Part shown: piece after piece, positions 8,367-35,503 of the stretch
How the letters are laid out: the number at the start of each line of letters is the position of its first letter
How positions within the stretch are numbered: the stretch's first letter is position 1
Assembly: GCA_044224725.1 (NCBI GenBank)
Contig: JBGAJW010000016.1
Location: forward strand, 7,055 to 71,054
Direction of reading: 5' to 3'
DNA length: 64,000 bases
From: Flavobacteriales bacterium
GTDB taxonomy: Bacteria; Bacteroidota; Bacteroidia; Flavobacteriales_F; PHOS-HE28
The notes under the pieces: generated by a model
Told to the model about the DNA's origin: nothing
What the model saw: only the letters and a program-made list of their open reading frames with translations
Databases searched by the model: none
Program-made: the position numbers and the translations under genes

Positions 8367-8831
8367 ATGAATGACTTCTCGACTGCGCTCGAAGTGACAT
8401 CAGTGAGGATCGTCAACAAAAGCAAACACTCGCTCCCCAACTACGCTACCGCCCACAGCGCCGGCATGGATCTCCGCGCCAACTTGGAAGCATCCATCAC
8501 TTTGGCCCCCGGCGAACGCGCCTTGGTGAAGACCGGCCTCTTCCTGGAACTCCCCGAAGGCACCGAAGCCCAAGTGCGCCCCCGCAGTGGGCTTGCCTTC
8601 AAACATGGCGTTACCGTGCTCAATGCGCCGGGCACCATCGATGCCGACTACCGCGGGGAGGTGGGCGTCATCCTCATCAACCACGGGCAGGAGCCTTTCG
8701 AGGTGAAGGATGGGGAACGCATTGCCCAGTTGGTCATCGCCCGGTACGAGCGCATCACCTTCACGGAAGTAGCTGACCTGTCGGTGTCAGAACGCGGGGC
8801 CGGGGGCTTCGGGCACACTGGAAGGAATTAG
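8367..8831 (+). CDS. dut: dUTP diphosphatase. The likely start is GTG 8394 or GTG 8403, giving about 143 aa.
   Basis: All Dut motifs are present: [51 protein letters not shown] and GFGHTG. Confidence 0.9.
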
Positions 8832-8850: not shown

Positions 8851-8929
8851 TTCACCACAGAGGCACAGAGACACAGAGGACGGGCCGAGAACATTGAGCT
8901 TCTCCGTGCCTCCGTGTCTCTGTGGTGAA
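8851..8929. repeat. Long imperfect inverted repeat (12-bp perfect outer stem TTCACCACAGAG / CTCTGTGGTGAA plus a further imperfect inner stem of about 12 bp) between dut and the nucleotidyltransferase gene. It is a candidate terminator or attenuator.
   Basis: Read directly: ttcaccacagaggcacagagacacagagga ... ctccgtgcctccgtgtctctgtggtgaa. Confidence 0.45.
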
Positions 8930-19313: not shown

Positions 19314-20876
19314 ATGATTCTTACGCGCCGCATGGACCGCATGCTCTTGCTCATCTCTTCCACGATCGCCGCATTGTGCGCCTTGGCACAGGCCCCCCCC
19401 TCGATCGACTGGCAGAAGGCCTTGGGTGGGTCCTTAAGGGACAAGGCGTATGCCGCTCACCCGACCATGGATGGTGGGTTCGTGGTGGTTGGCCAAACAC
19501 AATCCGACGATGGTGATGTGAGTGGGAACCATGGAGGCCTTGACGGCTGGTTGATAAAGCTGGGACCGACGGGGACAATCCAGTGGCAGAGGGCTTTGGG
19601 CGGGAGTGCGGACGACTGGTTGGCATGCACGCAACAGGTAGCCGACGGTGGCTACATCATGGCAGGTGCCGCCGAGTCCAACAATGGCAACTTTAGCGGC
19701 AACCATGGCGGTAAGGATTTCTGGGTGGTAAAGCTCAACGGGGAGGGCGTGCTCATCTGGCAAGTTTGCTTGGGTGGTGACCACTGGGATGAAGCGGCTT
19801 CGATCCAACAGACATTGGATGGGGGCTATATCGTGGCCGGCAGGACTGCATCCGACAATGACCAGGTCACGGGCTTTCACGGCGGCATGGATGTATGGGT
19901 AGTGAAGCTGGATGCATCGGGCGTGCTCCAATGGCAGAAGGCATACGGAGGCAGCCTGGCGGACGAGGCGAACTCCATCCGGCAGCTCAGCGATGGTGGC
20001 TACATCGTTTCCGGTTTTACTTATTCGAACGATGGTGATGTCACTGACAACCATGGGAGCTACGACTACTGGATCCTGAAGCTGGATGCCACAGGAACGC
20101 TTGAATGGCAGAAAACATTCGGAGGCAGTGAGAGCGATGAGGGGGAGCAGATACTCCCGACCGTTGATGGTGGATTCGTGGTGACCGGCAACACATCGTC
20201 AGGCGATGGCGACGTTTCCGAAGCGCCGGGAAACGGAGATATGTGGGTGTTGAAACTGGACAACGCGGGTGAACTCCTATGGGAACGTGCGTTTGGAGGA
20301 ACCGATAACGACTACGGCCGCTCCATCGTGATCACCGATGACGGGCACTACGTGATGGCGGGCTATTCCGGTTCGGCTGACGGCGACGTTCCCGGCAATC
20401 AAGGAGACTTCGACTATTGGGTCATCGATATGGATGAAAGCGGCACTCCGGGGTGGTCTCTTTCCCTGGGTGGCGGCGATGAGGACGAACTCCGATGGAT
20501 GGAGGCCACCAGCGATGGGGGCTACATCGTGTCGGGGGCCACCCTGTCCACCAGCGGGGACGTGACGGATAACCACGGGGACTATGACGTGTGGTTGGTG
20601 AAGCTCAACTTCTTCGTGGACGGGATCGCGGCCGACCAGCTACCGGCCTTCAGTGTTTCACCTAACCCAGCTTTCAGCCTCGTCCGCATCACAGCGGAAC
20701 GCTTCATCGACAATGGCGAATTGTGGCTCACAGATGCGACTGGTCGCATAGTGCTGAAAGAAGGAATGAACGGCATTACGAAGATTTTGGACCTGGAACA
20801 CCTCGCCGCGGGTTGCTACACGCTGAATGTGCATACCGGGGAGCATGTAAGTAGCACACGCCTGCTCTTGGAGTAG
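19314..20876 (+). CDS. T9SS-secreted protein made of eight tandem repeats of about 48 aa (beta-propeller blade-like) plus a C-terminal sorting domain
   Basis: Signal peptide, then eight copies of the consensus W(Q/E)(K/R)A(L/Y)GGSxxDxAxxIxQxxDGGYIVxGxTxSxDGDV(T/S)xNHGxxDxWVVKLDxxG. The C-terminus SVSPNPAFSLVRITA...GCYTLNVHTGEHVSSTRLLL is a T9SS domain. Confidence 0.65.
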   Translation: MILTRRMDRMLLLISSTIAALCALAQAPPSIDWQKALGGSLRDKAYAAHPTMDGGFVVVGQTQSDDGDVSGNHGGLDGWLIKLGPTGTIQWQRALGGSADDWLACTQQVADGGYIMAGAAESNNGNFSGNHGGKDFWVVKLNGEGVLIWQVCLGGDHWDEAASIQQTLDGGYIVAGRTASDNDQVTGFHGGMDVWVVKLDASGVLQWQKAYGGSLADEANSIRQLSDGGYIVSGFTYSNDGDVTDNHGSYDYWILKLDATGTLEWQKTFGGSESDEGEQILPTVDGGFVVTGNTSSGDGDVSEAPGNGDMWVLKLDNAGELLWERAFGGTDNDYGRSIVITDDGHYVMAGYSGSADGDVPGNQGDFDYWVIDMDESGTPGWSLSLGGGDEDELRWMEATSDGGYIVSGATLSTSGDVTDNHGDYDVWLVKLNFFVDGIAADQLPAFSVSPNPAFSLVRITAERFIDNGELWLTDATGRIVLKEGMNGITKILDLEHLAAGCYTLNVHTGEHVSSTRLLLE

Positions 20877-21449: not shown

Positions 21450-22982
21450 ATGCGGAGCCCGGAGCGTATGAAGCCTACTTTTCGCCCCCACATGACGAAG
21501 ACCCGTACCCTGCGACTGGTCCTGGCCGCCTTCTTACCAGGTCTTTGTTCCATTCCCGTTTCCGCCCAGGATCCCATGGCCCCCGATGATGAGGTGCTCG
21601 CGCGGATCAATGACCTGAGCAACTTGCCCTGGCTGAAGAACGACCCGTTCAGCACGGACGTGGGCGCGTTGAACACGCATGGCTTCGCGCCTACCGACAC
21701 GCCGAGCTATTCGCCCGATGTGTTGCGCCAACGGCTCGCGTTGTTGGATGAGCGCACGCCTTTCAAGCTCACTTACAACGAACAAGTGCAGGGGTACATC
21801 GACATGTACACCCGCCGGAAAAGGGAACAGGCCGGGCGCATGCTCGGATTGGCCCAACTCTACTTCCCCGTATTCGAAGAGGCGTTGGACCGGCATGGTA
21901 TGCCGCAGGAGCTGAAGTACCTCGCCGTGGTAGAAAGTGCATTGTTCCCAGGTGCGAAATCACGCGCGGCGGCTGTGGGCCTCTGGCAGTTCATGATCGG
22001 TACCGGCAAGATGTACGGACTGGAAGTGGACAGCTACGTGGATGAACGCTGCGATGTGTACCAGAGCACCGAGGCCGCTTGCCTGTACCTGAAAGACCTC
22101 TATCGGATCTTCGGCAACTGGGAACTCGCGCTGGCCGCGTACAACTGCGGACCCGGCAACGTGAACAAGGCCATCCGCCGATCAGGAGGCACGGATTACT
22201 GGAGTGTGTACAACAACCTGCCCCGGGAAACGCGCGGCTATGTACCCGCCTTCATCGCGGTGAACTACCTCTTCAACCACGCGGCGGACCACAACATCTA
22301 CCCCGTGATCCCGAACTACTGCGCGTACGAGGTGGACACGGTGCAGGTGTGCTATCCGCTCGACCTGGCCAAGCTCGCCGAGATCACCGGTGCCAACACG
22401 CAGGAGCTCCTCGACCTGAACCCGGTATACAAGCAAGGCCGTGTGCCGGACATGAACCAGGAGGCGACGCTCTATCTGCCGCGCACGCTCGTGGACGAGT
22501 TCATCGACCGCGAGGATTTCATCCGCTACAGCTACGTGCCGGACATGCACATGCCCGCTCCCGTGGCCAAGGGTGCGAACAAGAGCACCGGCGCGGACGG
22601 CGCAACAGCAAAACGCACGCATACGGTCCGGCGCGGGGAATCGCTTGGTACCATCGCACATAAGAACCATGTGACCGTGGGCAACCTGCGCGCTTGGAAC
22701 AAATTGCGCAGCGACCGAGTACGTGTGGGCCAGAAGCTCATCGTGAGCAAGGCTTCAAGCGCTGCGGCTTCTGCGGACCAATCGTCCAACGAACAGAAAG
22801 TTCTCCCAAGCGCTGCCACGGAGATCATCTTCCATACCGTACAGCCGGGCGATACGCTGTGGGGCATCGCACAGCGCTATCCAGGCGCTTCCGTGGAAGA
22901 GATCAAGCGCATCAACAGCGATTCGGATCTGCGCCACCTCGTCGTGGGCAAGAAGATCAAGGTCTCGGTACAGAAGGGCTGA
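21450..22982 (+). CDS. mltD: Membrane-bound lytic murein transglycosylase D-like protein (SLT domain plus two C-terminal LysM domains)
   Basis: SLT catalytic region LKYLAVVESALFPGAKSRAAAVGLWQFMIGTGKMYGL...AAYNCGPGNVNKAIR. There are two LysM motifs (HTVRRGESLGTIAHKNHVTVGNLRAWN and HTVQPGDTLWGIAQRYPGASVEEIKRIN). The start may be at 21468 or 21492. Confidence 0.8.
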   Translation: MRSPERMKPTFRPHMTKTRTLRLVLAAFLPGLCSIPVSAQDPMAPDDEVLARINDLSNLPWLKNDPFSTDVGALNTHGFAPTDTPSYSPDVLRQRLALLDERTPFKLTYNEQVQGYIDMYTRRKREQAGRMLGLAQLYFPVFEEALDRHGMPQELKYLAVVESALFPGAKSRAAAVGLWQFMIGTGKMYGLEVDSYVDERCDVYQSTEAACLYLKDLYRIFGNWELALAAYNCGPGNVNKAIRRSGGTDYWSVYNNLPRETRGYVPAFIAVNYLFNHAADHNIYPVIPNYCAYEVDTVQVCYPLDLAKLAEITGANTQELLDLNPVYKQGRVPDMNQEATLYLPRTLVDEFIDREDFIRYSYVPDMHMPAPVAKGANKSTGADGATAKRTHTVRRGESLGTIAHKNHVTVGNLRAWNKLRSDRVRVGQKLIVSKASSAAASADQSSNEQKVLPSAATEIIFHTVQPGDTLWGIAQRYPGASVEEIKRINSDSDLRHLVVGKKIKVSVQKG

Positions 22983-22997
22983 GCACCTCACCCCAAC

Positions 22998-23018
22998 CCC
23001 TCTCCCGAGGAGAGGGGC
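22998..23018. terminator. Perfect GC-rich hairpin (9-bp stem CCCCTCTCC / GGAGAGGGG, 3-nt loop) 16 nt after the mltD stop. It is a candidate intrinsic terminator and one copy of a repeated palindrome.
   Basis: Sequence cccctctcccgaggagagggg. A T-run (ctttttc) lies about 25 nt downstream. Confidence 0.5.
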
Positions 23019-23226
23019 TTCGCAAGACCCTGCAGCTTTTTCACATTCCATTCCGCTCGAACCGGCTCCGGGCTTCCCATTGACGGTCAGGCAATAGGCC
23101 GAAGAAGGTGCGCGTTCTCATGGCAGGGCATCGTGCGATGTTGATAATTCAACGAGCCGAACGAGCCGGTCGTCGACTACTTTGCGGTGGTCATCAAGAC
23201 GGGTTTCTCGTCGATCACGCATCCGC

Positions 23227-23457
23227 ATGGAACTCACCCGCATCCGCCCCTTCGCCCACAAGCACTGCCGTTTCAAACTGCGCAGCGGCAAGGAAGTGTT
23301 CGGCGTGATCTGGGAAGTGGAGAGCACGGAGAAGCGCTCCCTCTTCTTCGCGAGCATCGGTGACTACGAGCGCCTGCAGCGCGATCCCCAAAAACCGGTC
23401 AGCGTCATCAACCTGCGGCCGGAGGAGATCATGCATGTGGAGAGCATCGCGAGTTGA
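23227..23457 (+). CDS. Small hypothetical protein (76 aa)
   Basis: An ORF with plausible composition but no recognised domain. Weak call. Confidence 0.25.
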   Translation: MELTRIRPFAHKHCRFKLRSGKEVFGVIWEVESTEKRSLFFASIGDYERLQRDPQKPVSVINLRPEEIMHVESIAS

Positions 23458-23496
23458 TCCGCAGATGTCGCTGATGACGCAGATGAATGCGTCAGG

Positions 23497-24021
23497 TCAA
23501 TCCATTTTGGTCGTCCTCACACCGATCGGTCGGTGCTGTGCCCATAACATGATCAGCGGGCTGATCATCAGGCTTACCGGAACGATGGAGAAGTACCATG
23601 GACGGAAAAACGTCCAACCGGAAGGCAGGTAGTCGCGATGCCACGACGTGATCAGGATCACGAACCGTTCGAACAGACTGAACGGATCAATGAGCAGCCA
23701 CGTGATCGCCCATGCCACCCACCATGAACGTCTGGCGCGTTCCAACAGAAGCGTGGTGATGATGACCAGGAGCGACAAAGGCCGTATCCAGAACCAGCGC
23801 GCGTGATGAAGATGGGCTGCCATCGTACTGGCCAGCCATGCGATCAATTCGAGGCCGGACCCGATGATCGCCAGCCAGGTGCAATACAACAGCATCCTGC
23901 TCCATGCCTCGGAGCGCTCACGATGGAATACGCGCCAGATGGCCAGCAACGGAATGGTCAGGACGAACAAAGCCTGAAGCAGGTCGGCCAGCGAGGCCAT
24001 GTATGGCCATGTTGCGGCCAT
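23497..24021 (-). CDS. Hypothetical integral membrane protein (about 175 aa, 4-5 TM segments), immediately downstream of and co-directional with the oligopeptidase gene
   Basis: Hydrophobic segments (LFVLTIPLLAIW, LLYCTWLAIIGSGLELIAWL, LSLLVIITTLLL, WWVAWAITWLLI, YFSIVPVSLMISPLIML). The start ATG abuts the ptrB stop. Confidence 0.4.
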   Translation of the reverse strand: MAATWPYMASLADLLQALFVLTIPLLAIWRVFHRERSEAWSRMLLYCTWLAIIGSGLELIAWLASTMAAHLHHARWFWIRPLSLLVIITTLLLERARRSWWVAWAITWLLIDPFSLFERFVILITSWHRDYLPSGWTFFRPWYFSIVPVSLMISPLIMLWAQHRPIGVRTTKMD

Positions 24022-24023
24022 CT

Positions 24024-26147
24024 TCACCGGCTGGACAGCAGCCTCGCGCGCTGAACGAGGAACGCATAGATCAGTGCAACCTCTTTCAGCCGTTCGAAAC
24101 GCCCACTGGCACCACCGTGGCCCGCCTCCATATTGGTCTTCAGGATGATCGGCTCGGCCGCCTTCTGGTGTTCGCGCAAGCGCTGCACCCATTTGGCCGG
24201 CTCCCAGTACTGCACCTGGCTGTCGTGGAAACCGGTCAGTACCAGCATCGCGGGATAGTCGGCGTCCTTCACGTTGTCATACGGTGAATAGGACAGCATG
24301 CGCTCATAGGCTTCCTTCTCCTTGGGGTCGCCCCACTCATCGAACTCGCCGGTGGTGAGCGGGATGCTGTCATCCATCATCGTGGACACCACATCCACGA
24401 AAGGCACTTCGGCCACTACGCCGTTCCACAGGTCGGGACGCATGTTGGTGACGGCGCCGACGAGCAGTCCCCCCGCACTGCCGCCCATGCAGAAGAGGCG
24501 TTGCGGATCGCTGTACTTGTTCTTCAGGAGGTACTCGGCGCAGTCGATGAAATCCGTGAAGGTGTTCATCTTGTGCTCCATCTTGCCGTTGTCGTACCAG
24601 TTGCGGCCGAGCTCTTCACCGCCCCGGATATGGGCCAGCGCGTAAACGAAGCCCCGGTCCAGCAACGATAGGCGTGCACTGCTGAAGGTCGGGTCCATGC
24701 TGATGCCATAGGAGCCATAGCCGTACAGGAGCGCGGGTGACGTTCCATCGATCCTGGTGCCCTTGCGGTATACGATGCTGATCGGAATACGCTGGCCGTC
24801 ACGCGCCGGTGCCCACACGCGCTCGCTCACATAGTCCGCCGCATTGAAGGTGCCCATGACCTCCTGCTGCTTGAGCAGGATGTCCTTCGCCGTGTTCAGG
24901 TCGTGCTCGTAGATCCCGTTCGGCGTGGTAAGGCTGGTGTATCCATAGCGCAGTTTGTCGCTGTCGTATTCCGGGTTCGTGCCGGTATAGGCCACATAAG
25001 CCGGGTCATTGAACACGATGGGATGGTCCACGCCCGTGCTGAGCTTGCGCACGCGCAGGTGCGTAAGGCCGTCCTTGCGCTCGCTGAAGACCATGTGGTC
25101 CTTGAACAGGTCCACGTCTTCCAGCAGGACGTCCTCACGGTGCGGCACCACTTCGGTCCATGCCGCCTTCGAGGTATTGGACACGGGGCACTTCATGAAG
25201 CGGAAGTTCGTGGCCTTCCAATTGGTGAGGATGAAGAACTCGCCATTGGCGTGTTGCACACTGTACTCGTGCTCTTCTTCGCGGGGAAGTACCACCCTGA
25301 ACGACCCCGTCGGTTCGCCCACCGGCAGGTACCATTCCTCGGTGCTCAATGTGCTGCCCGTCGTGATCATCACGAAGGCGTTGCTCCGGTCGCGGTACAC
25401 ATCACAGCTGAAGGCGCCGTCCTTCTCGTGGTAGACCTCCACGTCGCTCTTCTCGTCCGTGCCGAGCGTATGGCGGAAGATCTTGTAGTTGCGCAAGGTC
25501 TTGTCCTTCCTGCTGTAGAAGAAGGTCTTGTTGTCCGCCCAAGCGCCCCCTCCACTCGTGTTGGTGATAATGTCCGGCAGTTCTGCGCCGGTCGACAGGT
25601 CGCGGAACCGGATCGTGTACAGACGGCGGCTTACGGTGTCCACACTGTACGCGCAGAGCTCGTTGTCCGGGCTGATCTCGAAGTCTCCGAGATCGAAATA
25701 GTCATGCCCGACGGCCATGGTGTTCTCGTTGATGAAGTCCTCCAGCCTCTCCGGCTGGCCTCCGTCAGCGTTCGCCTTGCCGCGCATATGCACGGCATAC
25801 TCTTTCCCTTGTTCGAAGCGGTGGTTGTACCAGTACTTCATCTCTTGGAAGAGGGTTTCGCGGAGTTGCTTCACGGGGGCGAGAAGGCTGTCCGCATAGG
25901 CGTTCTCAGCGGTCAGATGCGCGATCACTTCCTGCGTGTGCACGTCCGGTTGCTTCGCCTCGCGCTGCTCCTCGCTCAGGCGCATCCAGAAGTACTCGTC
26001 GTTGCGCGCATGGCCGTGCTCGACCATTTCGTGGGGGACCTTTTTGGCCTGGGGGGGGCGGGGTTGTTCGCTGGGCATGTGGGTCATCGGCTCGCCGCAC
26101 GCTGCTATCATGCAGATACCTGCGATGAGGCCGGCGTTGTGGTACAT
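24024..26147 (-). CDS. ptrB: Oligopeptidase B / S9A prolyl-oligopeptidase-family serine peptidase, predicted lipoprotein. The ORF extends to 26207.
   Basis: C-terminal catalytic domain has GGSAGGLL (nucleophile Ser), ...DDSIPLTTGEFDEWGDP and ...HGGASGRF. The N-terminal beta-propeller region is present. N-terminus MYHNAGLIAGICMIAACGE has a lipobox. Confidence 0.85.
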   Translation of the reverse strand: MYHNAGLIAGICMIAACGEPMTHMPSEQPRPPQAKKVPHEMVEHGHARNDEYFWMRLSEEQREAKQPDVHTQEVIAHLTAENAYADSLLAPVKQLRETLFQEMKYWYNHRFEQGKEYAVHMRGKANADGGQPERLEDFINENTMAVGHDYFDLGDFEISPDNELCAYSVDTVSRRLYTIRFRDLSTGAELPDIITNTSGGGAWADNKTFFYSRKDKTLRNYKIFRHTLGTDEKSDVEVYHEKDGAFSCDVYRDRSNAFVMITTGSTLSTEEWYLPVGEPTGSFRVVLPREEEHEYSVQHANGEFFILTNWKATNFRFMKCPVSNTSKAAWTEVVPHREDVLLEDVDLFKDHMVFSERKDGLTHLRVRKLSTGVDHPIVFNDPAYVAYTGTNPEYDSDKLRYGYTSLTTPNGIYEHDLNTAKDILLKQQEVMGTFNAADYVSERVWAPARDGQRIPISIVYRKGTRIDGTSPALLYGYGSYGISMDPTFSSARLSLLDRGFVYALAHIRGGEELGRNWYDNGKMEHKMNTFTDFIDCAEYLLKNKYSDPQRLFCMGGSAGGLLVGAVTNMRPDLWNGVVAEVPFVDVVSTMMDDSIPLTTGEFDEWGDPKEKEAYERMLSYSPYDNVKDADYPAMLVLTGFHDSQVQYWEPAKWVQRLREHQKAAEPIILKTNMEAGHGGASGRFERLKEVALIYAFLVQRARLLSSR

Positions 26148-26228
26148 GGGTTCGATCCCGTGGGCTTGGGAAGACCATGGGGCGGGCAAGTTACCCCGGC
26201 CCTCCATTCCTTCCGGCCCGGGTCGGCA

Positions 26229-26951
26229 TCACTCCAGCACAGCGCGCAGGACATCCAGTGAACGAAGCTCTCCGAAGCCTGCCACATGGAGCCGATAGTA
26301 AATGAGCAGGTCTTCCAGCAGCCGACGTCGTACTTCCGCGGAGGTCCTCAGCAGGGTGACCGTCTCCCCCGGTGCTTCGATGCGGCCTATCAGTTCGGCG
26401 AAAAGGTCGACCTGCGCCGGTTCCATGCAGAACTCGTGAGGAGCTTGGCCGTGGAAGAAATAGCCTTCGCGCAGGTCGAAGCGGTGTTCACCCGCATCGG
26501 GGATCTCAGGGAAGAAGCCCAAGTGGCGAGACAGTCCAACGAGAAGCAAAAGCGGCTGATGGGTCATGTCCGATCCCGTGTCCATGTTTTCCAAGGTCTC
26601 CTGAAGGAAGCCGTAGAGTTGTGCGTCTTCGGACTCCTCGCGCAGGGTGCGGTTGAACACTTCCTGGGCGAAGAGCATCAGCACGCCACGCACCGGCTCC
26701 TGCTGCAGCCGCGTGTACGGCCGATCGATCCGCAGTTCGCGTACGGTACGGAGCTCATGCTCGCCCGCTTCCGGCACCACCAGTTCCACCCGGGACAAGG
26801 GTTGAAGCGCGGCCGATCGGGCAGTGCCCTTCCCTGCTGACCGGACCATGTAGGACCGCAATCCGAACCGCTCGGTATAGGCCCGCAACACGGTGCTCTT
26901 ATCGCCGTGCTTGATGGCCCTCAGGACGATGGCTCGCGTGGTCTGGACCAT
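26229..26951 (-). CDS. recO: DNA repair protein RecO
   Basis: N-terminal OB-fold region MVQTTRAIVLRAIKHGDKSTVLRAYTERFGLRSYMVRSA... The length (240 aa) and layout match RecO. Confidence 0.8.
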   Translation of the reverse strand: MVQTTRAIVLRAIKHGDKSTVLRAYTERFGLRSYMVRSAGKGTARSAALQPLSRVELVVPEAGEHELRTVRELRIDRPYTRLQQEPVRGVLMLFAQEVFNRTLREESEDAQLYGFLQETLENMDTGSDMTHQPLLLLVGLSRHLGFFPEIPDAGEHRFDLREGYFFHGQAPHEFCMEPAQVDLFAELIGRIEAPGETVTLLRTSAEVRRRLLEDLLIYYRLHVAGFGELRSLDVLRAVLE

Positions 26952-26977
26952 GCGCGAAGTTCAGCGCCGGGAACCGA

Positions 26978-29338
26978 TCACCGCACCACCATCACCTTGG
27001 TGTTGCAATGCGACGTACCGGTCGGGTCTGAAGCCAGCACGATGTACACGCCGCTGCTCACGCGTTGTCCGCTCAGATCCGTTGCCGGCCACACCGCTTG
27101 GCCGCCGTTGGAGATGGTCCTGTAAACGAGGTTGCCGGCCATGTCCGTGATGCGCACGTCGCTGTCCGCGATGAGGCCGGTAATGGCGACCGGCCCTTGG
27201 TACGTCCCGCGCACAGGATTGGGGAAAACCGTGGCGCAGTCGGCTTCCTTGGCCCCGTCGGTCGCTTCCCCCCGATAACTCACGATGCCCTGGTCCGTGC
27301 CGATGAACACTTCGCCGGTGTTGCCGTTGATGGTGATGCTCGTGACGTTGTTGCTGGGCATCGGGCTGTTCTCCTTGGTGAAATGCTCGAGTTGGGTGGT
27401 CCCGTCCGGACTCACCAGGAACACGCCGCTGCTCTGCGTTCCGAGCCATTTGCGATCGCCACCGTCCACCGTGATCGCGCTCACCACTTCGGTCTCCAAC
27501 AGGATCTGCACGTTCCCATCCTGTTCGATGAGGATCTGCTGGCAATCGAAGTTCTCATCACTGAATATGGCGTCCGGGTTGTAGAATACCGCGATACCCT
27601 TGCCCGTACCCACCCAGACCTCCCCATCCTGGTCCTCCGCGACGCTGAAGACGTCCATCGTCGGCAGTTTGCCCTGGTTCTCGTAAGTGGTGAGCACCTT
27701 GAACTGATCGTCGCCCGTGTCGTCGATGGTGCCGCCATCCGTGAAGACCAGCAAGCCACTGGTGCGGGGGCGCACCAGCCATTTCTGTCCGTTCTCCATG
27801 GCGGTGATATCGGACAACAGTTCGTTCCCGCCCAGGATGGTCCCGGGATCGAAGGACTTCCATGTCCCGTCCTTTTTGCGCACACTGATCACTTTCTGCG
27901 TGTTGGCGTTGGACACCCAGAGGTTGCCGTCCTTGTCGAAGTCCAATCCGCCGACATCCACGACGCCATCCGCAGGAGTTCCATTGGTGCCCAGCGAGCT
28001 GTTCGTCGCGTTCCATATGTTCTGTACCACGCCATCCTGCCATTCCAGCACCCCTTCCTCCCAGCTGCCCGTGTACGCATGGCCGGTTACCTCCGGGTCC
28101 ACCGCCACCGCCATCGGGTCCACGGCGCCTCCGCCGATCCCGTTCACTCCCATCATCAAGGGATCATCCGCTTCCCCCACCGTTCGCCATTCACCATCCC
28201 TGAAGAGATGCACTCCTTCATGACCGTATGCGTTGGTCCAGTTCCCCGTGACCGAGCCGGTGGCCACCATCAGCAGGTCGTTCCGCACATCCAGTTCGAT
28301 CGCACCGCTGGTACGGGGGCCATTCGGCAATGTGATGATGCCCGCCCCGCCCTCATCGCATCGGACCAGGCCCAGATTCAGGCTCGCCACCCAGACCCCT
28401 CCATTGGACGCCCCGGTAACGCTGGATACGATGAAGTTCCGTCCATTCGCCGAACTCGTGGAGAAGATCCGCTGTAAGCCATTGTCATATTGCCGCGTCT
28501 CGAAGATCTGTCCGATCACAAGTCGCTGCCCGTCCGGTGAGACGGACATTCCCCGGGTGTCCCTTCCATACGCGTCGGACAACCGCTGCCAGCCACCGTC
28601 CCAGAAGTAGATGGTATCGGTCTCGGCATTGCTGGGCGGGGGAGCGGACCAATTCACGAAGAGCCTGCCCGAAAACGATTCCACATCCGTGAAAAACCCG
28701 TCCGCCTGTGGCAGGTCGATCCGCTGGTGCCAACTGGTGAAGGCGGCCAGATTGGGTTCCTCCTTCCAGGCGCTGAACAGGCCCCTCTCCGTTGCCGCAT
28801 AGATGGAATCCTGGTGGAAGGTCAATGTGTTCACCCGATTCTGCGCGGCGTTCGGGAAAATGAACCAGGTATCCTTCACCTCATTGCGCGCCAGATCGAG
28901 CACGACAATACCGAAGCCACAGCTCAAATAGGCAAGTTCACCCTCGCAGGTGATGCCATAGATCCGCTTGTCCCCGATGATGCTGCTTCGCCGGATATCG
29001 CTCAGGTTCGTGCACACACCTCCGGAAACCACATCCACGTTGCCATTGCCGTAGCCGATCACCAAGGCGTTCCGCGCACTGTTCCAGCCCAGGGCGCTCA
29101 CGTCCACATCGTTCAGGGCATTCGTCTTGTTGATCCGCGCGACCTCGTTGCTGGCGGGGTCGAAACTGAAAATCCCGTTGCGCGTGGCGCAGTACGCCGT
29201 GCCGTTGCCTTCGACCACGGCCACCGTGGCGATGTAGCTGAAATGGTCGCGCCATTGGCCGATGGGGATCTGGGCATGCGCCGCGCAGGCGAGTGCGAAC
29301 TGGAGCGTGATAGCGGCCAGGGTACGGATGGATGGCAT
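26978..29338 (-). CDS. T9SS-secreted protein with two beta-propeller domains of the two-component-regulator propeller type (PorZ-like)
   Basis: Signal peptide (LQFALACAAHAQ). Repeated W/Y-containing propeller blades fill the first roughly 650 aa. The C-terminal T9SS sorting domain is (TVFPNPVRGTYQGPVAITGL...SGVYIVLASDPTGTSHCNTKVMVVR). Confidence 0.6.
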   Translation of the reverse strand: MPSIRTLAAITLQFALACAAHAQIPIGQWRDHFSYIATVAVVEGNGTAYCATRNGIFSFDPASNEVARINKTNALNDVDVSALGWNSARNALVIGYGNGNVDVVSGGVCTNLSDIRRSSIIGDKRIYGITCEGELAYLSCGFGIVVLDLARNEVKDTWFIFPNAAQNRVNTLTFHQDSIYAATERGLFSAWKEEPNLAAFTSWHQRIDLPQADGFFTDVESFSGRLFVNWSAPPPSNAETDTIYFWDGGWQRLSDAYGRDTRGMSVSPDGQRLVIGQIFETRQYDNGLQRIFSTSSANGRNFIVSSVTGASNGGVWVASLNLGLVRCDEGGAGIITLPNGPRTSGAIELDVRNDLLMVATGSVTGNWTNAYGHEGVHLFRDGEWRTVGEADDPLMMGVNGIGGGAVDPMAVAVDPEVTGHAYTGSWEEGVLEWQDGVVQNIWNATNSSLGTNGTPADGVVDVGGLDFDKDGNLWVSNANTQKVISVRKKDGTWKSFDPGTILGGNELLSDITAMENGQKWLVRPRTSGLLVFTDGGTIDDTGDDQFKVLTTYENQGKLPTMDVFSVAEDQDGEVWVGTGKGIAVFYNPDAIFSDENFDCQQILIEQDGNVQILLETEVVSAITVDGGDRKWLGTQSSGVFLVSPDGTTQLEHFTKENSPMPSNNVTSITINGNTGEVFIGTDQGIVSYRGEATDGAKEADCATVFPNPVRGTYQGPVAITGLIADSDVRITDMAGNLVYRTISNGGQAVWPATDLSGQRVSSGVYIVLASDPTGTSHCNTKVMVVR

Positions 29339-29447
29339 GCGGACGGGTGATGAGCACCGGTATCAACGTGTTTCCGGCGCGATCGGTATGGACAAAGAAA
29401 CCGCTTGAACGTAACGGTCCCCCACCAAAGGCGGAGGACCGTAGTTG

Positions 29448-29518
29448 AGGTCGCGTGCGGATTCGAACCGCAGTAGCAGCTTTTGCAGAGCTGTGCCTAG
29501 CCACTCGGCCACGCGACC
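29448..29518 (-). tRNA. tRNA-Cys (anticodon GCA)
   Basis: The reverse complement gives GGTCGCGTGGCCGAGTGGCTAGGCACAGCTCTGCAAAAGCTGCTACTGCGGTTCGAATCCGCACGCGACC(T). It has a 7-bp acceptor stem, an anticodon stem CAGCT/AGCTG with loop CTGCAAA (anticodon GCA), and T-arm TGCGG-TTCGAAT-CCGCA. No CCA is encoded. Confidence 0.85.
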
Positions 29519-29587
29519 TTGAGCGGGCGGCGAAGATAGGCGAAGGGTAATCGATCGGCGGATGCGGACAGGATCCCCGGCCAGGAT

Positions 29588-29953
29588 TCACCCTCGGCCC
29601 TCGATCTCGTAGACCACATGGTCCAACGCGCCGCCCACGGGCGGGTGCTCTTTGGTGAGCCTTACACGCCAATGGAACTCGCCGGGCCACGTGGCTTTCA
29701 AGTGGTTCATGATGCGGCGTGCCACCTGTTCGATCAACGCGCTGCGCTGCGCCATCTGACCCAGTACGATCGCGGTCACCCGGCCATAATCGATGGTATC
29801 CTGGAGGTCGTCGCTGTTCTCCGCGTCGGAGAAATCACCCTCCACCCGCACATCCACACGGTAATGCCCCCCGATGCGCGCTTCCTCCTGCAGGCAGCCG
29901 TGGTATCCGAACGACCGGATCCCGTTCACCTCGATCACGCCCATGATGCGCAT
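29588..29953 (-). CDS. folB: Dihydroneopterin aldolase
   Basis: GVIEVNGIRSFGYHGCLQEEARIGGHYRVDVRV ... DTIDYGRVTAIV ... the FolB motif pattern (GxHGxxxxExxxGQ) is present. Length 118-121 aa. Confidence 0.85.
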   Translation of the reverse strand: MRIMGVIEVNGIRSFGYHGCLQEEARIGGHYRVDVRVEGDFSDAENSDDLQDTIDYGRVTAIVLGQMAQRSALIEQVARRIMNHLKATWPGEFHWRVRLTKEHPPVGGALDHVVYEIEGRG

Positions 29954-31470
29954 AGATCGAGCCCTGCCTTCAAGCGGGCGATGACCTCTTCCTTGCCCAA
30001 CAGTGCGCTCACGTCGAACATGCCCGGACCCTGCATGCGGCCGGCCACGAACAAGCGGTACACGGGCATCACCTGGCCCACCTTCATCGCTTTCGCTTGG
30101 AGCACTTGGTTGAAAGTGGCTTCAAGGTCTGACGGTCCGGGAGTTTGAAGGACCGAAAGCGCGCCGATGTAGGCTTCGATGGCTTGGGCGGTTTCGGGTT
30201 TCCAGCGCTTCTTCAGCTCCTCGTTCGCGGCCTCGTTGCCGGTGAGCGGGGAGCCCTTGGTGAAGAGATAGGTTCCCTCAAGCATGTCGTCGACGAAGGT
30301 GGCCCGCTCCTTCAACAAAGCGGCGGCGCGGGTGGCCCGGTCCAAGGAGGTCTCGATGCCCTTGTCCTTCAACCGGGCCATCAGTTTGGCCCCCAGTTCC
30401 TCATCGGGCCGCATACGCAGGTATTGCTGGTTGAACCACTTGGTCTTCTCCGGATCGAACTTGGCACCGCCCTTATGCACCCGCTCGAGGTCGAACAGCT
30501 GGGTGAGTTCCCCGATACTCATGATCTCCTGGTCCGTACCGGGGTTCCAGCCCAGCAGTGCGAGCATATTGATGAACGCTTCCGGGTAGTAACCCCGCTC
30601 GCGATAACCGCTGCTCTTTTCCTTGCTGACGGGGTCGACCCAATCCAATGAAAAGACCGGAAAACCGAGGCGATCACCATCGCGTTTGCTGAGTTTGCCA
30701 TTGCCATCGGGCTTCAAGATCAACGGCAGGTGCGCGAACGCCGGACGCTCCCAACCGAAGGCTTCGTAGATCAGCACATGCAATGGGGCGCTGGGCAGCC
30801 ATTCTTCCCCCCTGATCACATGCGTGATGCGCATCAGGTGGTCATCCACGATGTTGGCCAAGTGGTAGGTGGGCATGCCGTCGCTCTTGAACAGCACCTT
30901 ATCGTCGATGTTGGCGCTGTGCACCACCACCCACCCGCGGATGATGTCCTCGAAGCGCACTTCCGCATGGCGGGGCACCTTCAACCGCACCACGTACTGG
31001 TCCCCACGCTCCAAGCGCTCCTTCACCTCGTCCGCGCTCAAAGTGAGCGAGTTCTTCATGTGCTCGCGCGTGACCGCGTTGTAGGCCGGGGCGGCAACCC
31101 CCGCGGCCTGCAGCCGGGCCCGCATCGCCTCGAGTTCTTCCGGCGTGTCGAACGCGTAGTAGGCCTTGTCCTTCGCTATCAATTCATCAGCGTACTGCTT
31201 GTACAGCGGCTTGCGGTCGCTTTGGCGATACGGTCCATCAGGACCGCCCAACCATGGGCTTTCATCGGGTACCAGACCACACCACTCCAAGCTCTCCTTG
31301 ATGTACTGCTCGGCCCCCGGTACGTAGCGCGCCTGGTCGGTATCCTCGATGCGCAGCAGGAACTGCCCGCCGTGCTTGCGGGCGAAGAGGTAGTTGTAGA
31401 GGGCAGTGCGCACACCGCCCATGTGCAAGGGGCCGGTGGGGCTGGGGGCGAAGCGGACGCGAACGCTCAT
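29935..31470 (-). CDS. gltX: Glutamate--tRNA ligase. The ORF extends upstream to 31614, but the conserved N-terminus begins at M 31470.
   Basis: RFAPSPTGPLHMGGVRTALYNYLFAR with the HIGH-type motif. A KMSKS-like LSKR is present (GNGKLSKRDG). The length of about 512 aa matches GltX. Confidence 0.9.
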   Translation of the reverse strand: MSVRVRFAPSPTGPLHMGGVRTALYNYLFARKHGGQFLLRIEDTDQARYVPGAEQYIKESLEWCGLVPDESPWLGGPDGPYRQSDRKPLYKQYADELIAKDKAYYAFDTPEELEAMRARLQAAGVAAPAYNAVTREHMKNSLTLSADEVKERLERGDQYVVRLKVPRHAEVRFEDIIRGWVVVHSANIDDKVLFKSDGMPTYHLANIVDDHLMRITHVIRGEEWLPSAPLHVLIYEAFGWERPAFAHLPLILKPDGNGKLSKRDGDRLGFPVFSLDWVDPVSKEKSSGYRERGYYPEAFINMLALLGWNPGTDQEIMSIGELTQLFDLERVHKGGAKFDPEKTKWFNQQYLRMRPDEELGAKLMARLKDKGIETSLDRATRAAALLKERATFVDDMLEGTYLFTKGSPLTGNEAANEELKKRWKPETAQAIEAYIGALSVLQTPGPSDLEATFNQVLQAKAMKVGQVMPVYRLFVAGRMQGPGMFDVSALLGKEEVIARLKAGLDLCASWA

Positions 31471-31693
31471 GTGCTCAAGGGATAGGTAACCGTTCGAACG
31501 GCCTTCAAAAGGGCGGCGAAAATAGGTTGGGGCTTCCGGGAACGACCGGTCAACCCGCCGTACAGGGCTGTGTTGTGGAACAACGATCCAACACCAGACC
31601 CTCGCCCCCTCCACCGCTTGTCAACAAATTCGTCGAATATTTCACGGCATTCATCGAAATCGTTCTGACATTTGTGACCTCAATCATTCGCCC

Positions 31694-32233
31694 ATGAAGC
31701 TCCAACAACTCCTTTCAGCGGCGGTGTTCGTCCTCTCCTCAGCCGGCCTGAGCGCCCAGTGCAGCGAGGTTCCTTTGGTCGACAAGGAACTCTTCGACCT
31801 GTTGCGCAAGCAGCCCACGCTCTCCGCCACTCATGCTTCATCGCGCATCGACGTGGTGAACGACCGATTTGAACCCTGTACCCGGCGAAAGGACGCGCGC
31901 TACGTCCGCACGATCACCCCCACGGCGCATGGCTATTCTGTGCGGGTGCAGACCCCCCACGGGTTCACCCTGATGACCGGCATGTTCGCTGACGCCGATG
32001 CCAACGTGCCCCATGGCGATTTCCGCTACTACGATGATGCCGGTACCCTGCGCGCCGAAGGCCGGTATGTGGACGGCCTGAAGATGGGTGTCTGGCACCG
32101 GTACGACGACCGCGGCCAGGCCTTGTTGGACAAGGAATACGATGGCCTGGATTGGGAGGGAAAGCAGTTGAAACTCGGACTGGCCAGCCAATGCTGCTAC
32201 CTCGGTGATATGGCCGAGGAGCGCGAACAGTAG
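31694..32233 (+). CDS. Secreted MORN-repeat-variant / YwqK-like protein
   Basis: Signal peptide (VFVLSSAGLSAQC). MORN-variant-like repeats follow (GDFRYYDDAGTLRAEGRYVDGLKMGVWHRYDDRGQALLDKEYDG). Confidence 0.4.
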   Translation: MKLQQLLSAAVFVLSSAGLSAQCSEVPLVDKELFDLLRKQPTLSATHASSRIDVVNDRFEPCTRRKDARYVRTITPTAHGYSVRVQTPHGFTLMTGMFADADANVPHGDFRYYDDAGTLRAEGRYVDGLKMGVWHRYDDRGQALLDKEYDGLDWEGKQLKLGLASQCCYLGDMAEEREQ

Positions 32234-32328
32234 CCCCAAAGCCACACGAAAGAGAGCGGGTCATGAACGGCCCGCTCTCCTTCGTTTTTCGGCCACTCCT
32301 CTCATGGGGGAGCGCAAGAAAGAAGTGC

Positions 32329-32658
32329 TCAACGCAACTGTACCCCTTTCAGCAGCAAGCGTTGCCAAGAGGGGTTCTGGCGCAGATAATCCTTCACCTT
32401 CGGGCAAAGGGGGATCAACTTCAGGTTGTTGGCCTCCACATGACTCAAGGTCTTTTCCGTGAGCACGCGGTGCGCATCACCGGTGGCCAATTGTTTGGGC
32501 ACGTCCGTCCGGGTGAGGAATATCCGATCGCCCTGGTGGTCGTATTCGATGCGGGCCCGCTGATCGCCCACTTTCAGCACGAACTGGCGCGTGGCCTTTT
32601 CGTCCGTCAGTGTCAACTCGCTAAGGTCCGTGACTGCGGGGGTAATGGTTTTCGCCAT
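32329..32658 (-). CDS. Small GNAT-like N-acetyltransferase (about 109 aa, YjdJ/PF14542-like). The ORF extends upstream to 32751.
   Basis: IEYDHQGDRIFLTRTDVPKQLATGDAHRVLTEKTLSHVEANNLKLIPLCPKV resembles the single-domain GNAT_acetyltran_2 family. Confidence 0.4.
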   Translation of the reverse strand: MAKTITPAVTDLSELTLTDEKATRQFVLKVGDQRARIEYDHQGDRIFLTRTDVPKQLATGDAHRVLTEKTLSHVEANNLKLIPLCPKVKDYLRQNPSWQRLLLKGVQLR

Positions 32659-32943
32659 GGTGAGGAGGGCCGCAAAGATAACCTTACGGACGCGCACTGG
32701 TCGCATACCGGTCCCGTCTCGGCCGCAGTCCCTTCCATCGAGTGCGCACAATGAACCAGTTCAATGGCGGCCCTGCGCCCCCATCGGACTTTTGTGCCCG
32801 ACACGTGGATCCCCATGGACCGCAAAAGCCAGATGGGCACAGGTGCAGCAGCCGTTACCGGAATTACGCTCGCCGATCAGCGGACCAACGATTTGCCAGT
32901 AGTGGTGTGCTTCAACCATTTGCCCTCGGAAAACCCGAAGATC

Positions 32944-33669
32944 ATGGCCAACACCGTCCTCCATAAAGCCGCTACCCGCGGCCACGCCGATCATGGCTGG
33001 TTGAACAGCCACCACACCTTCAGCTTCGCGAACTACTATGACCCGGAGCGTATGCACTTCGGCGTGCTCCGCGTGCTGAACGACGATACCGTGGCCCCCG
33101 GCATGGGCTTCGGCACGCATCCGCATGACAACATGGAGATCATCTCCATTCCGCTGGAAGGCGATCTGGAGCACAAGGACAGCATGGGCAACACCGCGGT
33201 GATCCGCAACGGGGACGTGCAGGTGATGAGCGCCGGCACGGGCATCCGCCACAGCGAGTACAACCGCAACAAGGAACAACTGGTGAAGTTCCTGCAGATC
33301 TGGGTCTTCCCGAACAAGCGGGATGTGGCACCACGCTACGACCAGATCACATTGGACGCGGCCAAGCGGCACAACAACCTCCAACAGATCCTGTCGCCCA
33401 ACCCCGAGGATGAGGGCGTGTGGATCCACCAGAACGCGTGGTTCCACTTGGGCACCTTCGACAAGGACTTCGCCACGACCTACGAGCTGAAAGACAAGCG
33501 TAACGGGGTGTACGTGTTCGTCCTCAGTGGGGACCTTACGGTGAACGGCATCCCACTGAACCAACGCGATGGATTGGGTGTTCAGGAGGCGCCTTCCTTG
33601 AACCTGAAGGCGGACAGCCAAGGTGCCGAAGTGCTGCTGATGGAAGTGCCGATGACCATTGAACAATGA
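32944..33669 (+). CDS. Pirin family protein (bicupin). The ORF is open from 32764.
   Basis: GHADHGWLNSHHTFSFANYYDPERMHFGVLRVLNDDTVAPGMGFGTHPHDNMEIISIPLEGDLEHKDSMGN is the classic pirin N-terminal cupin with its metal-binding His residues. Confidence 0.9.
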   Translation: MANTVLHKAATRGHADHGWLNSHHTFSFANYYDPERMHFGVLRVLNDDTVAPGMGFGTHPHDNMEIISIPLEGDLEHKDSMGNTAVIRNGDVQVMSAGTGIRHSEYNRNKEQLVKFLQIWVFPNKRDVAPRYDQITLDAAKRHNNLQQILSPNPEDEGVWIHQNAWFHLGTFDKDFATTYELKDKRNGVYVFVLSGDLTVNGIPLNQRDGLGVQEAPSLNLKADSQGAEVLLMEVPMTIEQ

Positions 33670-34268
33670 CCGAACTGACCACCATTGACACCCGAACGCT
33701 GAAGGAGGCGCATACCGCGCAACCCGTGCATCCGCTGATCCGTGGGCGGTTCAGCGCACGCGCCTTCAGCCCCGAGCAGCTCTCTGACGCTGAGCTCCTC
33801 ACCCTCTTGGAGGCGGCGGCTTGGGCACCCAGCGCAATGAACGAACAGCCTTGGCGGTATCGCTATGCGCTCCGGGGGACCGCGTGGTTCGATACCCTTT
33901 GGAACTGCCTGAACTCCGGCAACCAGCCGTGGACGAGGGATGCCGCCGCATTGGTGGTCTGTTCGGTGATGACGAAACTCGAACGCAACGGCCAACCGAA
34001 CCACAGCCGCCACCACGACCTCGGCCTCGCCAACGCACAGCTGCTACTGCAGGCCACGAGCATGGGCATCTATGGCCACCTCATGGGCGGTTTCGACCAT
34101 GAGAAGGCCGACCGCGAACTCGGTATCGACGCCGAACAGGAGGAGGTGGTTTGCCTGCTAGCCATCGGCCGCCTCGGAACGCCGGATAGCCTCATTGAGC
34201 CCTTCAAGACCCGCGAACTGACCCCGCGCACCAGGCGTCCCCTTGCAGGCACGGTACAGCGGCTCTGA
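33666..34268 (+). CDS. Nitroreductase family protein
   Basis: RFSARAFSPEQLSDAELLTLLEAAAWAPSAMNEQPWRY ... NAQLLLQATSMGIYGHLMGGFD matches nitroreductase-fold FMN oxidoreductases. There is an ATGA overlap with the pirin gene. Confidence 0.8.
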   Translation: MTELTTIDTRTLKEAHTAQPVHPLIRGRFSARAFSPEQLSDAELLTLLEAAAWAPSAMNEQPWRYRYALRGTAWFDTLWNCLNSGNQPWTRDAAALVVCSVMTKLERNGQPNHSRHHDLGLANAQLLLQATSMGIYGHLMGGFDHEKADRELGIDAEQEEVVCLLAIGRLGTPDSLIEPFKTRELTPRTRRPLAGTVQRL

Positions 34269-34348
34269 GCTTGCTCCGTTCGGAGGCTGGAATTGACCGG
34301 CGGCATCAGCGGCTGCCAAGGATCACAGCTGCTGAGTAAGCTTGTACC

Positions 34349-35503
34349 ATGAGGCCATTCCTGTTCGTACTCGGCGTCCTGGTCCTGCTGGTGCCCGAGA
34401 TCCTGCGGGTCTACTACATCATGCCCTTCCCCGGCAGCCAGGAGGACATGCCCACGGATCTGCGGCAAGTGGACATCGCCTACTGGCTGCACACCAATAT
34501 CTGGTGGGTGCGGTTCATCGGTCTTGCGCTGATCATCGGGCCGTTCATCCACTACCTGCGTACCGGCAACTGGAGGAAGCGGATAGCCGTGCTGTTACCT
34601 GTTACGCTCTGCGCGGTGGTGTTCTACGCGTTCAACTTCAAGTTCATGGCGGACAAGATGTTCTACCCGCCGAAGGTGAAGAACCTCGCCCCCGTCCCCT
34701 CTCCCGAGGAGAGGGGGGCCCTGCCCGATAGCGTCGCGAACCACTTGGTGATCGCCGTGGAACGCAATGGCGATGCGCGCGCTTATCCGATCGAACTCAT
34801 CGGCTACCACCACCAAGTGCTCGATACCATCGGTGGTGAACCAGTTCTGGTGACCTATTGCACCGTGTGCCGAACAGGCCGCGCTTGGAAGCCGGAAGTG
34901 AAGGGCCAACCGGAAACCTTCCGGCTTGTGGGTATGGACCATTTCAACGCCATGTTCGAGGACAGCCGCACGGGATCCTGGTGGCGTCAGGTGAACGGCG
35001 AGTGCATCGAGGGGCCATTGAAAGGACAACAACTCGAAGAAGTGCCGAGCCAACAGATGACGCTCGGTGAGTTCGCTTCGCGTCATCCGAAGGGGCTGGT
35101 GTTCCAACCGGACAGCAACTTCACCCAAGAGTACGCGGGGCTGAAGGGCTTCGATGATGGAACGATCGAATCTTCTCTCGAATACCGCGACACGGCAAGC
35201 TGGCAACCCAAGAGTTGGGTTGTCGGCGTGGTCCTCGATGGGCATGAGAGAGCGTATGATTGGAACTATCTCTCACGGAACGAGGTCATAAACGACACTT
35301 TAGGTGGTCAGTGCATCAAGTTGTCGACCGACTCTGCCACGGGATTCGATGGTCTGGTTGTGTTCTCGGAGGTATCCGACAGAGCAGATGGCTCGGGGAG
35401 AGATTCTACCTACGTTGAAATGAACATTCCTGCCTACCAGGAGTTCTGGCACAGCTGGCGCACCTTCCACCCGAACACCACGCGGTACGAGCCGAAGCGC
35501 TGA
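34349..35503 (+). CDS. DUF3179 domain protein with an N-terminal multi-TM region
   Basis: Three or four N-terminal TM helices. The DUF3179 core carries the VLVTYCTVCRTGRAW (CxxC) motif. A 21-nt palindromic element lies in-frame in this gene. Confidence 0.55.
   Translation: MRPFLFVLGVLVLLVPEILRVYYIMPFPGSQEDMPTDLRQVDIAYWLHTNIWWVRFIGLALIIGPFIHYLRTGNWRKRIAVLLPVTLCAVVFYAFNFKFMADKMFYPPKVKNLAPVPSPEERGALPDSVANHLVIAVERNGDARAYPIELIGYHHQVLDTIGGEPVLVTYCTVCRTGRAWKPEVKGQPETFRLVGMDHFNAMFEDSRTGSWWRQVNGECIEGPLKGQQLEEVPSQQMTLGEFASRHPKGLVFQPDSNFTQEYAGLKGFDDGTIESSLEYRDTASWQPKSWVVGVVLDGHERAYDWNYLSRNEVINDTLGGQCIKLSTDSATGFDGLVVFSEVSDRADGSGRDSTYVEMNIPAYQEFWHSWRTFHPNTTRYEPKR
34696..34716. repeat. Second identical copy of the 21-nt palindrome cccctctcccgaggagagggg, lying in-frame inside the DUF3179 coding sequence (it encodes PSPEERG)
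   Basis: Exact 21/21 match to 22998..23018, in a different context (intergenic versus coding). Confidence 0.6.

Follow-up and report, generated by a model that had tools for sequence, protein, structure and literature searches.

The BoxC repeats of Escherichia coli, also named PIT or TMECO (Hoyne et al., 2000; Holder et al., 2015, PMC4666352), are built as class II purine-motif intrastrand triplexes, whose formation was demonstrated in vitro, and are present in 23 copies in strain MG1655, 'always intergenic' and often as inverted pairs; they are tied to genomic instability and are abundant in Enterobacteria and Cyanobacteria (PMC4666352). The repeats, known since the 1990s, mark unstable loci. 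They lack any assigned function, origin or mobility enzyme, and an explicit statement of the 2015 survey is that it found no mobility gene for them (Holder et al., 2015, PMC4666352). REP sequences, with their REPIN and REPtron arrangements, are short GC-rich palindromes present as solo units and inverted dimers; the REPtron shows a single enzyme gene between two inverted repeats, and occasional REP copies lie in frame inside genes such as uvrD (Di Nocera et al., 2013, PMC3733652). The stretch analysed here, hereafter the window, comprises 64,000 nucleotides of a Flavobacteriales bacterium (assembly GCA_044224725.1, contig JBGAJW010000016.1) and contains two copies of a 21-nt hairpin, one downstream of a gene encoding an MltD-like lytic transglycosylase and the other inside a gene encoding a DUF3179 protein. 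Both hairpins are probably the cores of two solo dispersed repeats of about 33 nt, of triplex type, which would derive from a cassette encoding a DUF559 nuclease and would have no dedicated host function. The two copies, their parts and the genes next to them or around them are as follows:

22986..23017, + strand: copy 1, full element, intergenic, 3 nt past the stop codon of the mltD-like gene
22986-22994, linker AA, 22997-23005, loop CGA, 23009-23017, + strand: parts of copy 1, namely third segment CCTCACCCC, linker, pyrimidine arm CCCCTCTCC, loop and purine arm GGAGAGGGG
34684..34716, + strand: copy 2, full element, in frame in the DUF3179 gene, codons ~113-123, reading ..LAPVPSPEERG
34684-34692, linker CGT, 34696-34704, loop CGA, 34708-34716, + strand: parts of copy 2, namely third segment CCTCGCCCC, linker, pyrimidine arm, loop and purine arm
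21450..22982, + strand: gene encoding the MltD-like lytic transglycosylase (SLT and two LysM domains), directly upstream of copy 1
34349..35503, + strand: gene encoding the DUF3179 protein, host of copy 2

The sequence CCCCTCTCCCGAGGAGAGGGG shows exactly two exact matches on the + strand of the window, at 22997-23017 and 34696-34716, and none in 100 dinucleotide-preserving shuffles of the window, even with up to three mismatches. The first-pass annotation had reported these two identical hairpins, and both exist, although its coordinates for copy 1 (22998-23018) are one base off. The 9-bp stem and the 3-nt loop that it described are also borne out, the stem being perfect and the hairpin, as RNA, having a folding energy of -16.8 kcal/mol, but the element is more than a hairpin, since it includes a co-varying mirror-repeat third segment. 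This segment, CCTC[A/G]CCCC, is found 2-3 nt upstream of the hairpin in both copies. As the entire window contains just four such sites, the unit that is repeated measures about 33 nt and not 21. The full repeat contains CCTC[A/G]CCCC, 2-3 nt, CCCCTCTCC, CGA and GGAGAGGGG. Its G-rich strand, CCCCTCTCCTCGGGAGAGGGGTTGGGGTGAGG, shows in this order the pyrimidine arm, the 3-nt loop, the purine arm, 2-3 nt and the mirror-image G-rich third segment; copy 1 read on the - strand is CCCCTCTCC-tcg-GGAGAGGGG-tt-GGGGTGAGG.

Under the mirror rule of the purine-motif triplex, the third segment mirrors the purine arm: a G of the arm faces a G, and an A of the arm faces an A or a T. Copy 1 obeys this rule at all nine positions and copy 2 at eight of the nine, and a generic triplex scanner returned exactly these two sites in the window, against two in 425 kb of unrelated control loci. 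Across all the loci collected, a generic search shows that stem and third segment co-vary as mirror repeats in at least ten stem variants: GGAGAGGGG is paired with GGGGTGAGG in 158 cases and with GGGGAGAGG in 69 (that is, GGGG[T/A]GAGG), GGGGAGGG with GGG[T/A]GGGG, GGAGAAGGGG with GGGGATGAGG, GGAGGAAGGGG with GGGGATGGAGG and GGGGGAAG with GAAGGGGG, and further variants behave likewise. This co-variation is the pattern expected for an antiparallel purine-motif triple helix and supports, at the level of sequence, either the triplex fold or something that reads this fold.

The element shares the class II purine-motif intrastrand-triplex design of BoxC/PIT/TMECO and forms a distinct sequence family centred on Bacteroidota. 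Both groups show a 9-nt C-rich arm, a loop of 3-6 nt, a complementary 9-nt G-rich arm, a 2-3-nt linker and a second G-rich segment under the same rule, with a core CCTCTCC / GGAGAGG / GGTGAGG in which T is opposite the same A; both are highly conserved, multi-copy, frequent as inverted pairs and also abundant in cyanobacteria. The homopyrimidine arm, the loop and the perfectly complementary homopurine arm are present in both window copies (CCCCTCTCC-CGA-GGAGAGGGG). In contrast, the register differs (CCCCTCTCC here versus CCCTCNCCC), and the published TMECO pattern, CCCTCNCCC N3-6 GGGNGAGGG N3 GGGNGAGGG, has no match in the window. TMECO copies were described from Proteobacteria, as 'always intergenic' and as lacking an associated mobility gene, whereas the family of the window belongs to Bacteroidota, is often in frame inside genes and bounds DUF559 cassettes.

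The exact 21-mer shows at least 137 copies in at least 120 stretches when one genome per species is considered, almost all of them from Bacteroidota, and this agrees with the dispersed small palindromic repeat family that the first-pass annotation had suspected and with its view that a chance match was very unlikely. Among the matches listed, the carriers are Flavobacteriales metagenome-assembled genomes (MAGs), Lewinellaceae, Hymenobacter, Bacteroidales, Paludibacter/Microbacter and Chitinophagaceae; relatives contain several exact copies each, and Neolewinella aurantiaca at least 15. A stretch of 35-36 nt which includes copy 1 is identical in three other Bacteroidota genomes. In a viral-contig collection, 78 loci matched CCCCTCTCC-NNN-GGAGAGGGG, with 117 copies in total and as many as nine or more on a single contig, nearly all with CCTC[A/T]CCCC on one side, and virtually every copy of the family shows the third segment on exactly one side. 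The two window copies are most likely solo, non-autonomous members of this repeat family. A literature search with the raw 9-mers led to nothing but eukaryotic papers on G-quadruplexes and primers. The Lewinellaceae/Neolewinella loci (e.g. L212:312-1749) show the element inside a longer conserved unit, ..ACGAACTTGCCGCTTGTCACGTCT-hairpin-CCGGGGGAGAGGGGGATCCGTGCA.., in local arrays and with CGTC beside the stem, which looks like a larger MITE-like subfamily.

Copy 2 encodes PSPEERG without a frame break, as first annotated, at residues 117-123 of the DUF3179 protein. The 120 orthologs of this protein were compared at the site of copy 2: about 90 show no insert, 11 show PSP[E/G]ERG-like inserts, about 13 show SSPGPFSRGEGE or PLSQ[GR]EGG, and four show PSEWQKA. 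The PSPEERG-type alleles are exactly seven residues longer than the insert-free orthologs; the possible lack of the seven codons in orthologs had been raised in the first-pass annotation, and most of the 120 lack exactly those codons, which points to an insertion. In the AlphaFold model, the protein contains three N-terminal helices (residues 2-98), a low-confidence linker (about residues 100-130) and then a beta-rich domain; residues 117-123 fall within the low-pLDDT linker and the Pfam DUF3179 match starts at residue 131. Copy 2 is a derived in-frame insertion into a permissive linker, where it is tolerated.

The DNA was compared across syntenic orthologs with the gene order Pirin, nitroreductase, DUF3179 and TfoX; DUF3179 relatives from a metagenome scan, mostly of 45-51% identity among the matches listed, were used only as empty-site outgroups. 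The full 33-nt element occurs in the linker in three reading frames across orthologs, always in the same orientation. Frame A contains the window and L163, with an identical hairpin and, in L163, the canonical third segment CCTCACCCC; L167, with an intact stem and the loop changed to GGG; L168, which is partly decayed; and L166, where the hairpin is lost and the length is kept. Frame B contains L165, L301 and L169 and includes the compensatory variant CCTCATCCCC-cgg-CCCCTTCTCC-cgg-GGAGAAGGGG, and frame C contains L170. The residues DS[VT]ANH downstream of the element are kept in frame A but replaced in frames B and C, which indicates at least two separate events or positions. The reading of the element in three frames favours an identity at the nucleotide and not at the peptide level, and selection on the PSPEERG peptide was ruled out. 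Between the window and two orthologs of 80% and 75% overall identity, the stem arms show no differences at 18 positions and the loop is changed in one; this perfect conservation fits either structural constraint or homogenisation.

A neighbour-joining tree of the DUF3179 proteins shows the linker states scattered even among near-identical proteins, because L301 is a recombination mosaic: in the nucleotide alignment, its ends and backbone are those of the empty allele L164, and some 440 nt in its centre match the filled allele L165 exactly. Element-bearing linker alleles thus pass between strains by ordinary homologous recombination, and the exchange in L301 appears to be recent. The recombination hotspot that the first-pass annotation had considered receives from this exchange of linker alleles with and without the element indirect support only. 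Immediately past the stop codon of the DUF3179 gene, L169:10383-10420 (GCA_039931265.1) shows two triplex-type elements in opposite orientation.

An in-frame copy inside a coding sequence was considered unusual in the first-pass annotation, which does not hold for the relatives of the source genome: nearly all copies examined in the related high-GC Flavobacteriales MAGs are intragenic and in frame, in housekeeping genes such as those for LeuRS, MiaB, IspG, UvrD and MetH. The ORF-spanning test classified 45 of 139 copies as intragenic, these calls being heuristic except for the Pfam-confirmed hosts. The confirmed hosts are LeuRS in four MAGs, IspG/GcpE in three and MiaB in two, together with MetH, UvrD (where the element occupies the linker that precedes the tudor domain), urocanase, chorismate synthase, alpha-2-macroglobulin, an FAD-dependent protein and an RHS protein. 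Hosts in other orders include LpxB, a rhamnosidase, MetH and LeuRS, and the copies of Lewinellaceae and Bacteroidales are mostly intergenic. For annotation, the repeat accounts for the recurrent low-complexity peptides PSPEERG, PLSRGEG and GEGxGVR inside conserved proteins. In three MAGs (L201:4392-6500(-), L214:4965-6980 and L247:2205-4424(-)), IspG/GcpE shows the element at one common site, where the insert domain begins, with reverse orientation in two different frames and one inverted dimer.

Rickettsia palindromic elements (RPEs), reportedly the subject of work by Ogata and colleagues in 2000, are selfish palindromic repeats found in frame in many housekeeping genes at permissive sites. 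The same behaviour, with an in-frame position in a conserved gene, a permissive site and orthologs lacking the insert, was found for copy 2, and RPE-like in-frame positions are also present in LeuRS, MiaB, IspG, UvrD and MetH of relatives. RPEs differ in that they have about 100-150 bp, encode 30-50 residues, are confined to Rickettsia and show neither a triplex-type architecture nor an associated nuclease gene. They are also mentioned in the REP literature (PMC3733652).

The gene associated with the repeat encodes DUF559, a Vsr-like PD-(D/E)XK domain (PF04480), which lies in frame between host domains in LeuRS (L177, L240, L184 and L234) and in MetH (L178, L189, L235 and L282); the closest solved structure to the inserted domain is 3HRL. 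On either side of the DUF559 domain, these two proteins show a copy of the element, the pair being inverted and the third segments outermost. In 854 kb of Bacteroidota loci selected for the element, all ten DUF559 domains show flanking elements, nine by regular-expression scan and one variant by eye, the left one forward and the right one reversed; no DUF559 domain was found in 528 kb of control loci. Adjacent pairs are forward-then-reverse in 27 cases and reverse-then-forward in four, and the distance within a pair has a bimodal distribution, with 22-124 nt in MITE/REPIN-like dimers and 416-580 nt where DUF559 lies between the copies; inverted pairs with the third segments outermost enclose either a short spacer or an in-frame DUF559 domain. 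Two stand-alone DUF559 genes of Flavobacteriales MAGs are flanked by the cognate variants CCCCACCCC, CCCTCCCC and GGGGAGGG. Among 120 DUF559 homologs, element-encoded peptides were found in one, a count which is uninformative since gene calls start inside the flanking repeats.

Outside Bacteroidota, TMECO number 9 of E. coli MG1655 lies downstream of the DUF559 gene ycjD, at a distance of 168 nt and with the same outward orientation, and a degenerate CCCTCTCCC hairpin overlaps the ycjD stop codon (L300, NC_000913.3 1351204-1351760). In other phyla, nine DUF559 loci were examined, and four of them (Synechocystis, Deinococcus, Photobacterium and Neisseria) show triplex-type elements within 400 nt, where about 0.06 sites are expected. 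No DUF559 locus was confirmed in the viral collection, and the plasmid collection was used in its place. The literature searched shows no link of DUF559 or ycjD to BoxC. Between ycjD and the BoxC copy there is a partial duplication of the ycjD 3' end.

The LeuRS genes bearing DUF559 are from Flavobacteriales and Microbacter, and in them a domain of some 170 residues separates the catalytic core from the editing domain (L177:3704-7255, L240:3203-6862(-), L184:4239-6461 and L234:3794-7201(-)); a second, solo element is present at another LeuRS site, near residue 723 or 738, in a frame that differs between the two orders. The MetH loci are L189:1434-4802(-), L235:2-1966, L178:1-1515(-), L282:2345-6541 and L242:3-2789. 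In Paludibacter and Microbacter the cassette separates S-methyl_trans from Pterin_bind, and in Lewinella it separates the two B12-binding domains; one Flavobacteriales MetH shows only the repeats, at this last linker.

The repeats would accordingly be read, on this association, as termini or recognition structures of a selfish cassette encoding DUF559, and we infer that DUF559 mobilises them. The cassette layout, an inverted pair around a DUF559 ORF, is present in the related loci and not in the window, where both copies are solo and no DUF559 is found; they can therefore only be derivatives and not the cassette itself, and would be non-autonomous. The repeats would lack a dedicated host function, and their effects would be by-products: a stable hairpin or triplex in single-stranded DNA, a linker extension of seven residues and, possibly, local instability. 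A broader proposal is offered tentatively, as one that could well be wrong: DUF559 proteins may be the cognate enzymes of BoxC/PIT-type repeats across bacterial phyla, and the unit of repeat, DUF559 and inverted repeat may be a compact selfish cassette which inserts in frame in linkers of essential proteins (LeuRS and MetH), is read through without splicing, and sheds solo and dimer repeats such as the window pair. If true, it would explain a repeat family that has been an orphan for 30 years and give a function to DUF559, including E. coli YcjD. The Bacteroidota branch of the BoxC-type architecture tolerates or prefers in-frame positions in protein linkers and repeatedly bounds DUF559 nuclease domains, and BoxC is also next to ycjD in E. 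coli; if the link is causal, the origin of the repeats and the role of DUF559 become directly testable. Homing endonucleases with a Vsr-like fold are known, such as I-Bth0305I and the EDxHD family, and are sited in self-splicing introns or inteins. They resemble the cassettes described here in having a Vsr-like PD-(D/E)XK nuclease ORF embedded in essential genes, and differ in that the DUF559 cassettes are apparently read through as host protein and are bounded by hairpin/triplex repeats.

Several observations weigh against this derivation from a DUF559 cassette. No DUF559 was found in the window nor in 650 kb of viral-collection loci with many copies, and five of the nine DUF559 loci from other phyla show no detectable element. 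The DUF559 genes could be targets of the element, or be regulated by it, rather than its mobiliser. Neither a target-site duplication nor a clean empty-versus-filled junction was found, the comparison of near-identical alleles being that of a recombination mosaic, and at the DUF3179 linker the element partly replaces sequence instead of being a clean addition. The source genome is not among the at least 120 stretches listed, the two copies counted being those in the 64 kb of the window, and further copies are nearly absent from about 110 kb of flanks in close relatives, which indicates a modest density. Finally, the perfect conservation of the stem could reflect selection for a host function.

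The first alternative, a classical REP/REPIN family mobilised by a RAYT (an HUH tyrosine transposase), in which the adjacency to DUF559 would be incidental, is unlikely. The element shares with REPs a GC-rich palindrome of 20-40 nt, multiple copies and frequent inverted dimers, and the layout of a single enzyme gene between two inverted repeats; CGTC just 5' of the stem in Lewinellaceae copies and GTAG in cyanobacteria-like copies match the tags of REP superfamilies, and REPs inside genes are also documented (PMC3733652). In the window, copy 2 shows a CGTC that overlaps the first base of the stem and copy 1 shows neither GTAG nor CGTC; the two copies have no consistent tag. Moreover, the gene found between inverted copies encodes DUF559, a PD-(D/E)XK nuclease and not an HUH tyrosine transposase, the constant co-varying mirror third segment is alien to REPs, and no RAYT was seen, though no search aimed at RAYT was made. 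The first-pass annotation had suggested a REP-like family; the dispersed small palindromic repeat remains of that suggestion, but the third segment is of the intrastrand-triplex type and is not a REP feature.

The second alternative, to which little probability is given, is a structure selected by the host, with copy 1 serving mltD either as terminator or as a 3' hairpin that stabilises the mRNA, copy 2 as a ribosome-pausing mRNA hairpin between the membrane anchor and the DUF3179 domain, and their identity due to shared constraints. The stability of the RNA hairpin, the start of the copy 1 hairpin 14 nt past the stop codon of the MltD-like gene, the position of copy 2 exactly at a domain boundary and the stem perfectly kept amid diverged flanks in two orthologs, with a variable loop, agree with it. 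However, the stem of copy 1 is followed by cttcgcaag, with no T-tract, and a scan of 22700-23600 found no terminator-like site. The first-pass annotation had it acting like a terminator; as a GC-rich stem-loop without a T-run, it was ruled out as an intrinsic (Rho-independent) terminator. A follow-up study on E. coli PIT elements, as cited in PMC4666352, found no terminator or promoter activity. In addition, the majority of DUF3179 orthologs manage without the element, which is decayed in L168 and L166; the orthologous mltD 3' region of L168 lacks copy 1; and identical elements are present in many unrelated genes and genomes.

The last alternative, two unrelated sequences that match by accident, has next to no probability: the genome has about 60% G+C and codons for Pro, Ser, Glu and Gly are able to spell the motif, but it was refuted by the absence of shuffle matches, by the flanking third segment common to both copies, by the hundreds of identical copies elsewhere, including exact ones in other genomes, and by the DUF3179 orthologs that lack the seven codons.

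Other features of the window are separate from the two repeats. The Rfam scan of the window shows a tRNA gene at 29448-29518 (-) as the only match above the gathering threshold, the permissive hairpin matches being weak and at chance level. An intergenic palindrome at 8851-8929, between the ORF at 8367-8831 and a gene starting near 8944, shows 28-nt arms (TTCACCACAGAGGCACAGAGACACAGAG and CTCCGTGCCTCCGTGTCTCTGTGGTGAA) that are 86% complementary, with a 23-nt spacer, and may be another dispersed repeat family. The region 44000-45700 shows a strong A-over-T skew (AT skew 0.495) and many degenerate, 21-nt-phased coding repeats rich in GAG/AAG/CAG, and looks like a gene encoding a long Glu/Lys/Gln-rich coiled-coil protein. 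Repeats with a period of 174 nt and the motif ..GATGG.GGCTACATCGT.. are contained at 19640-20536, inside the ORF 19314-20876, and suggest a tandem-repeat, beta-propeller-like protein. A 73-nt direct repeat of 74% identity is present at 1420-1492 and 1806-1878, 386 nt apart, and each copy begins with ATG; these may be the starts of two adjacent paralogous genes.

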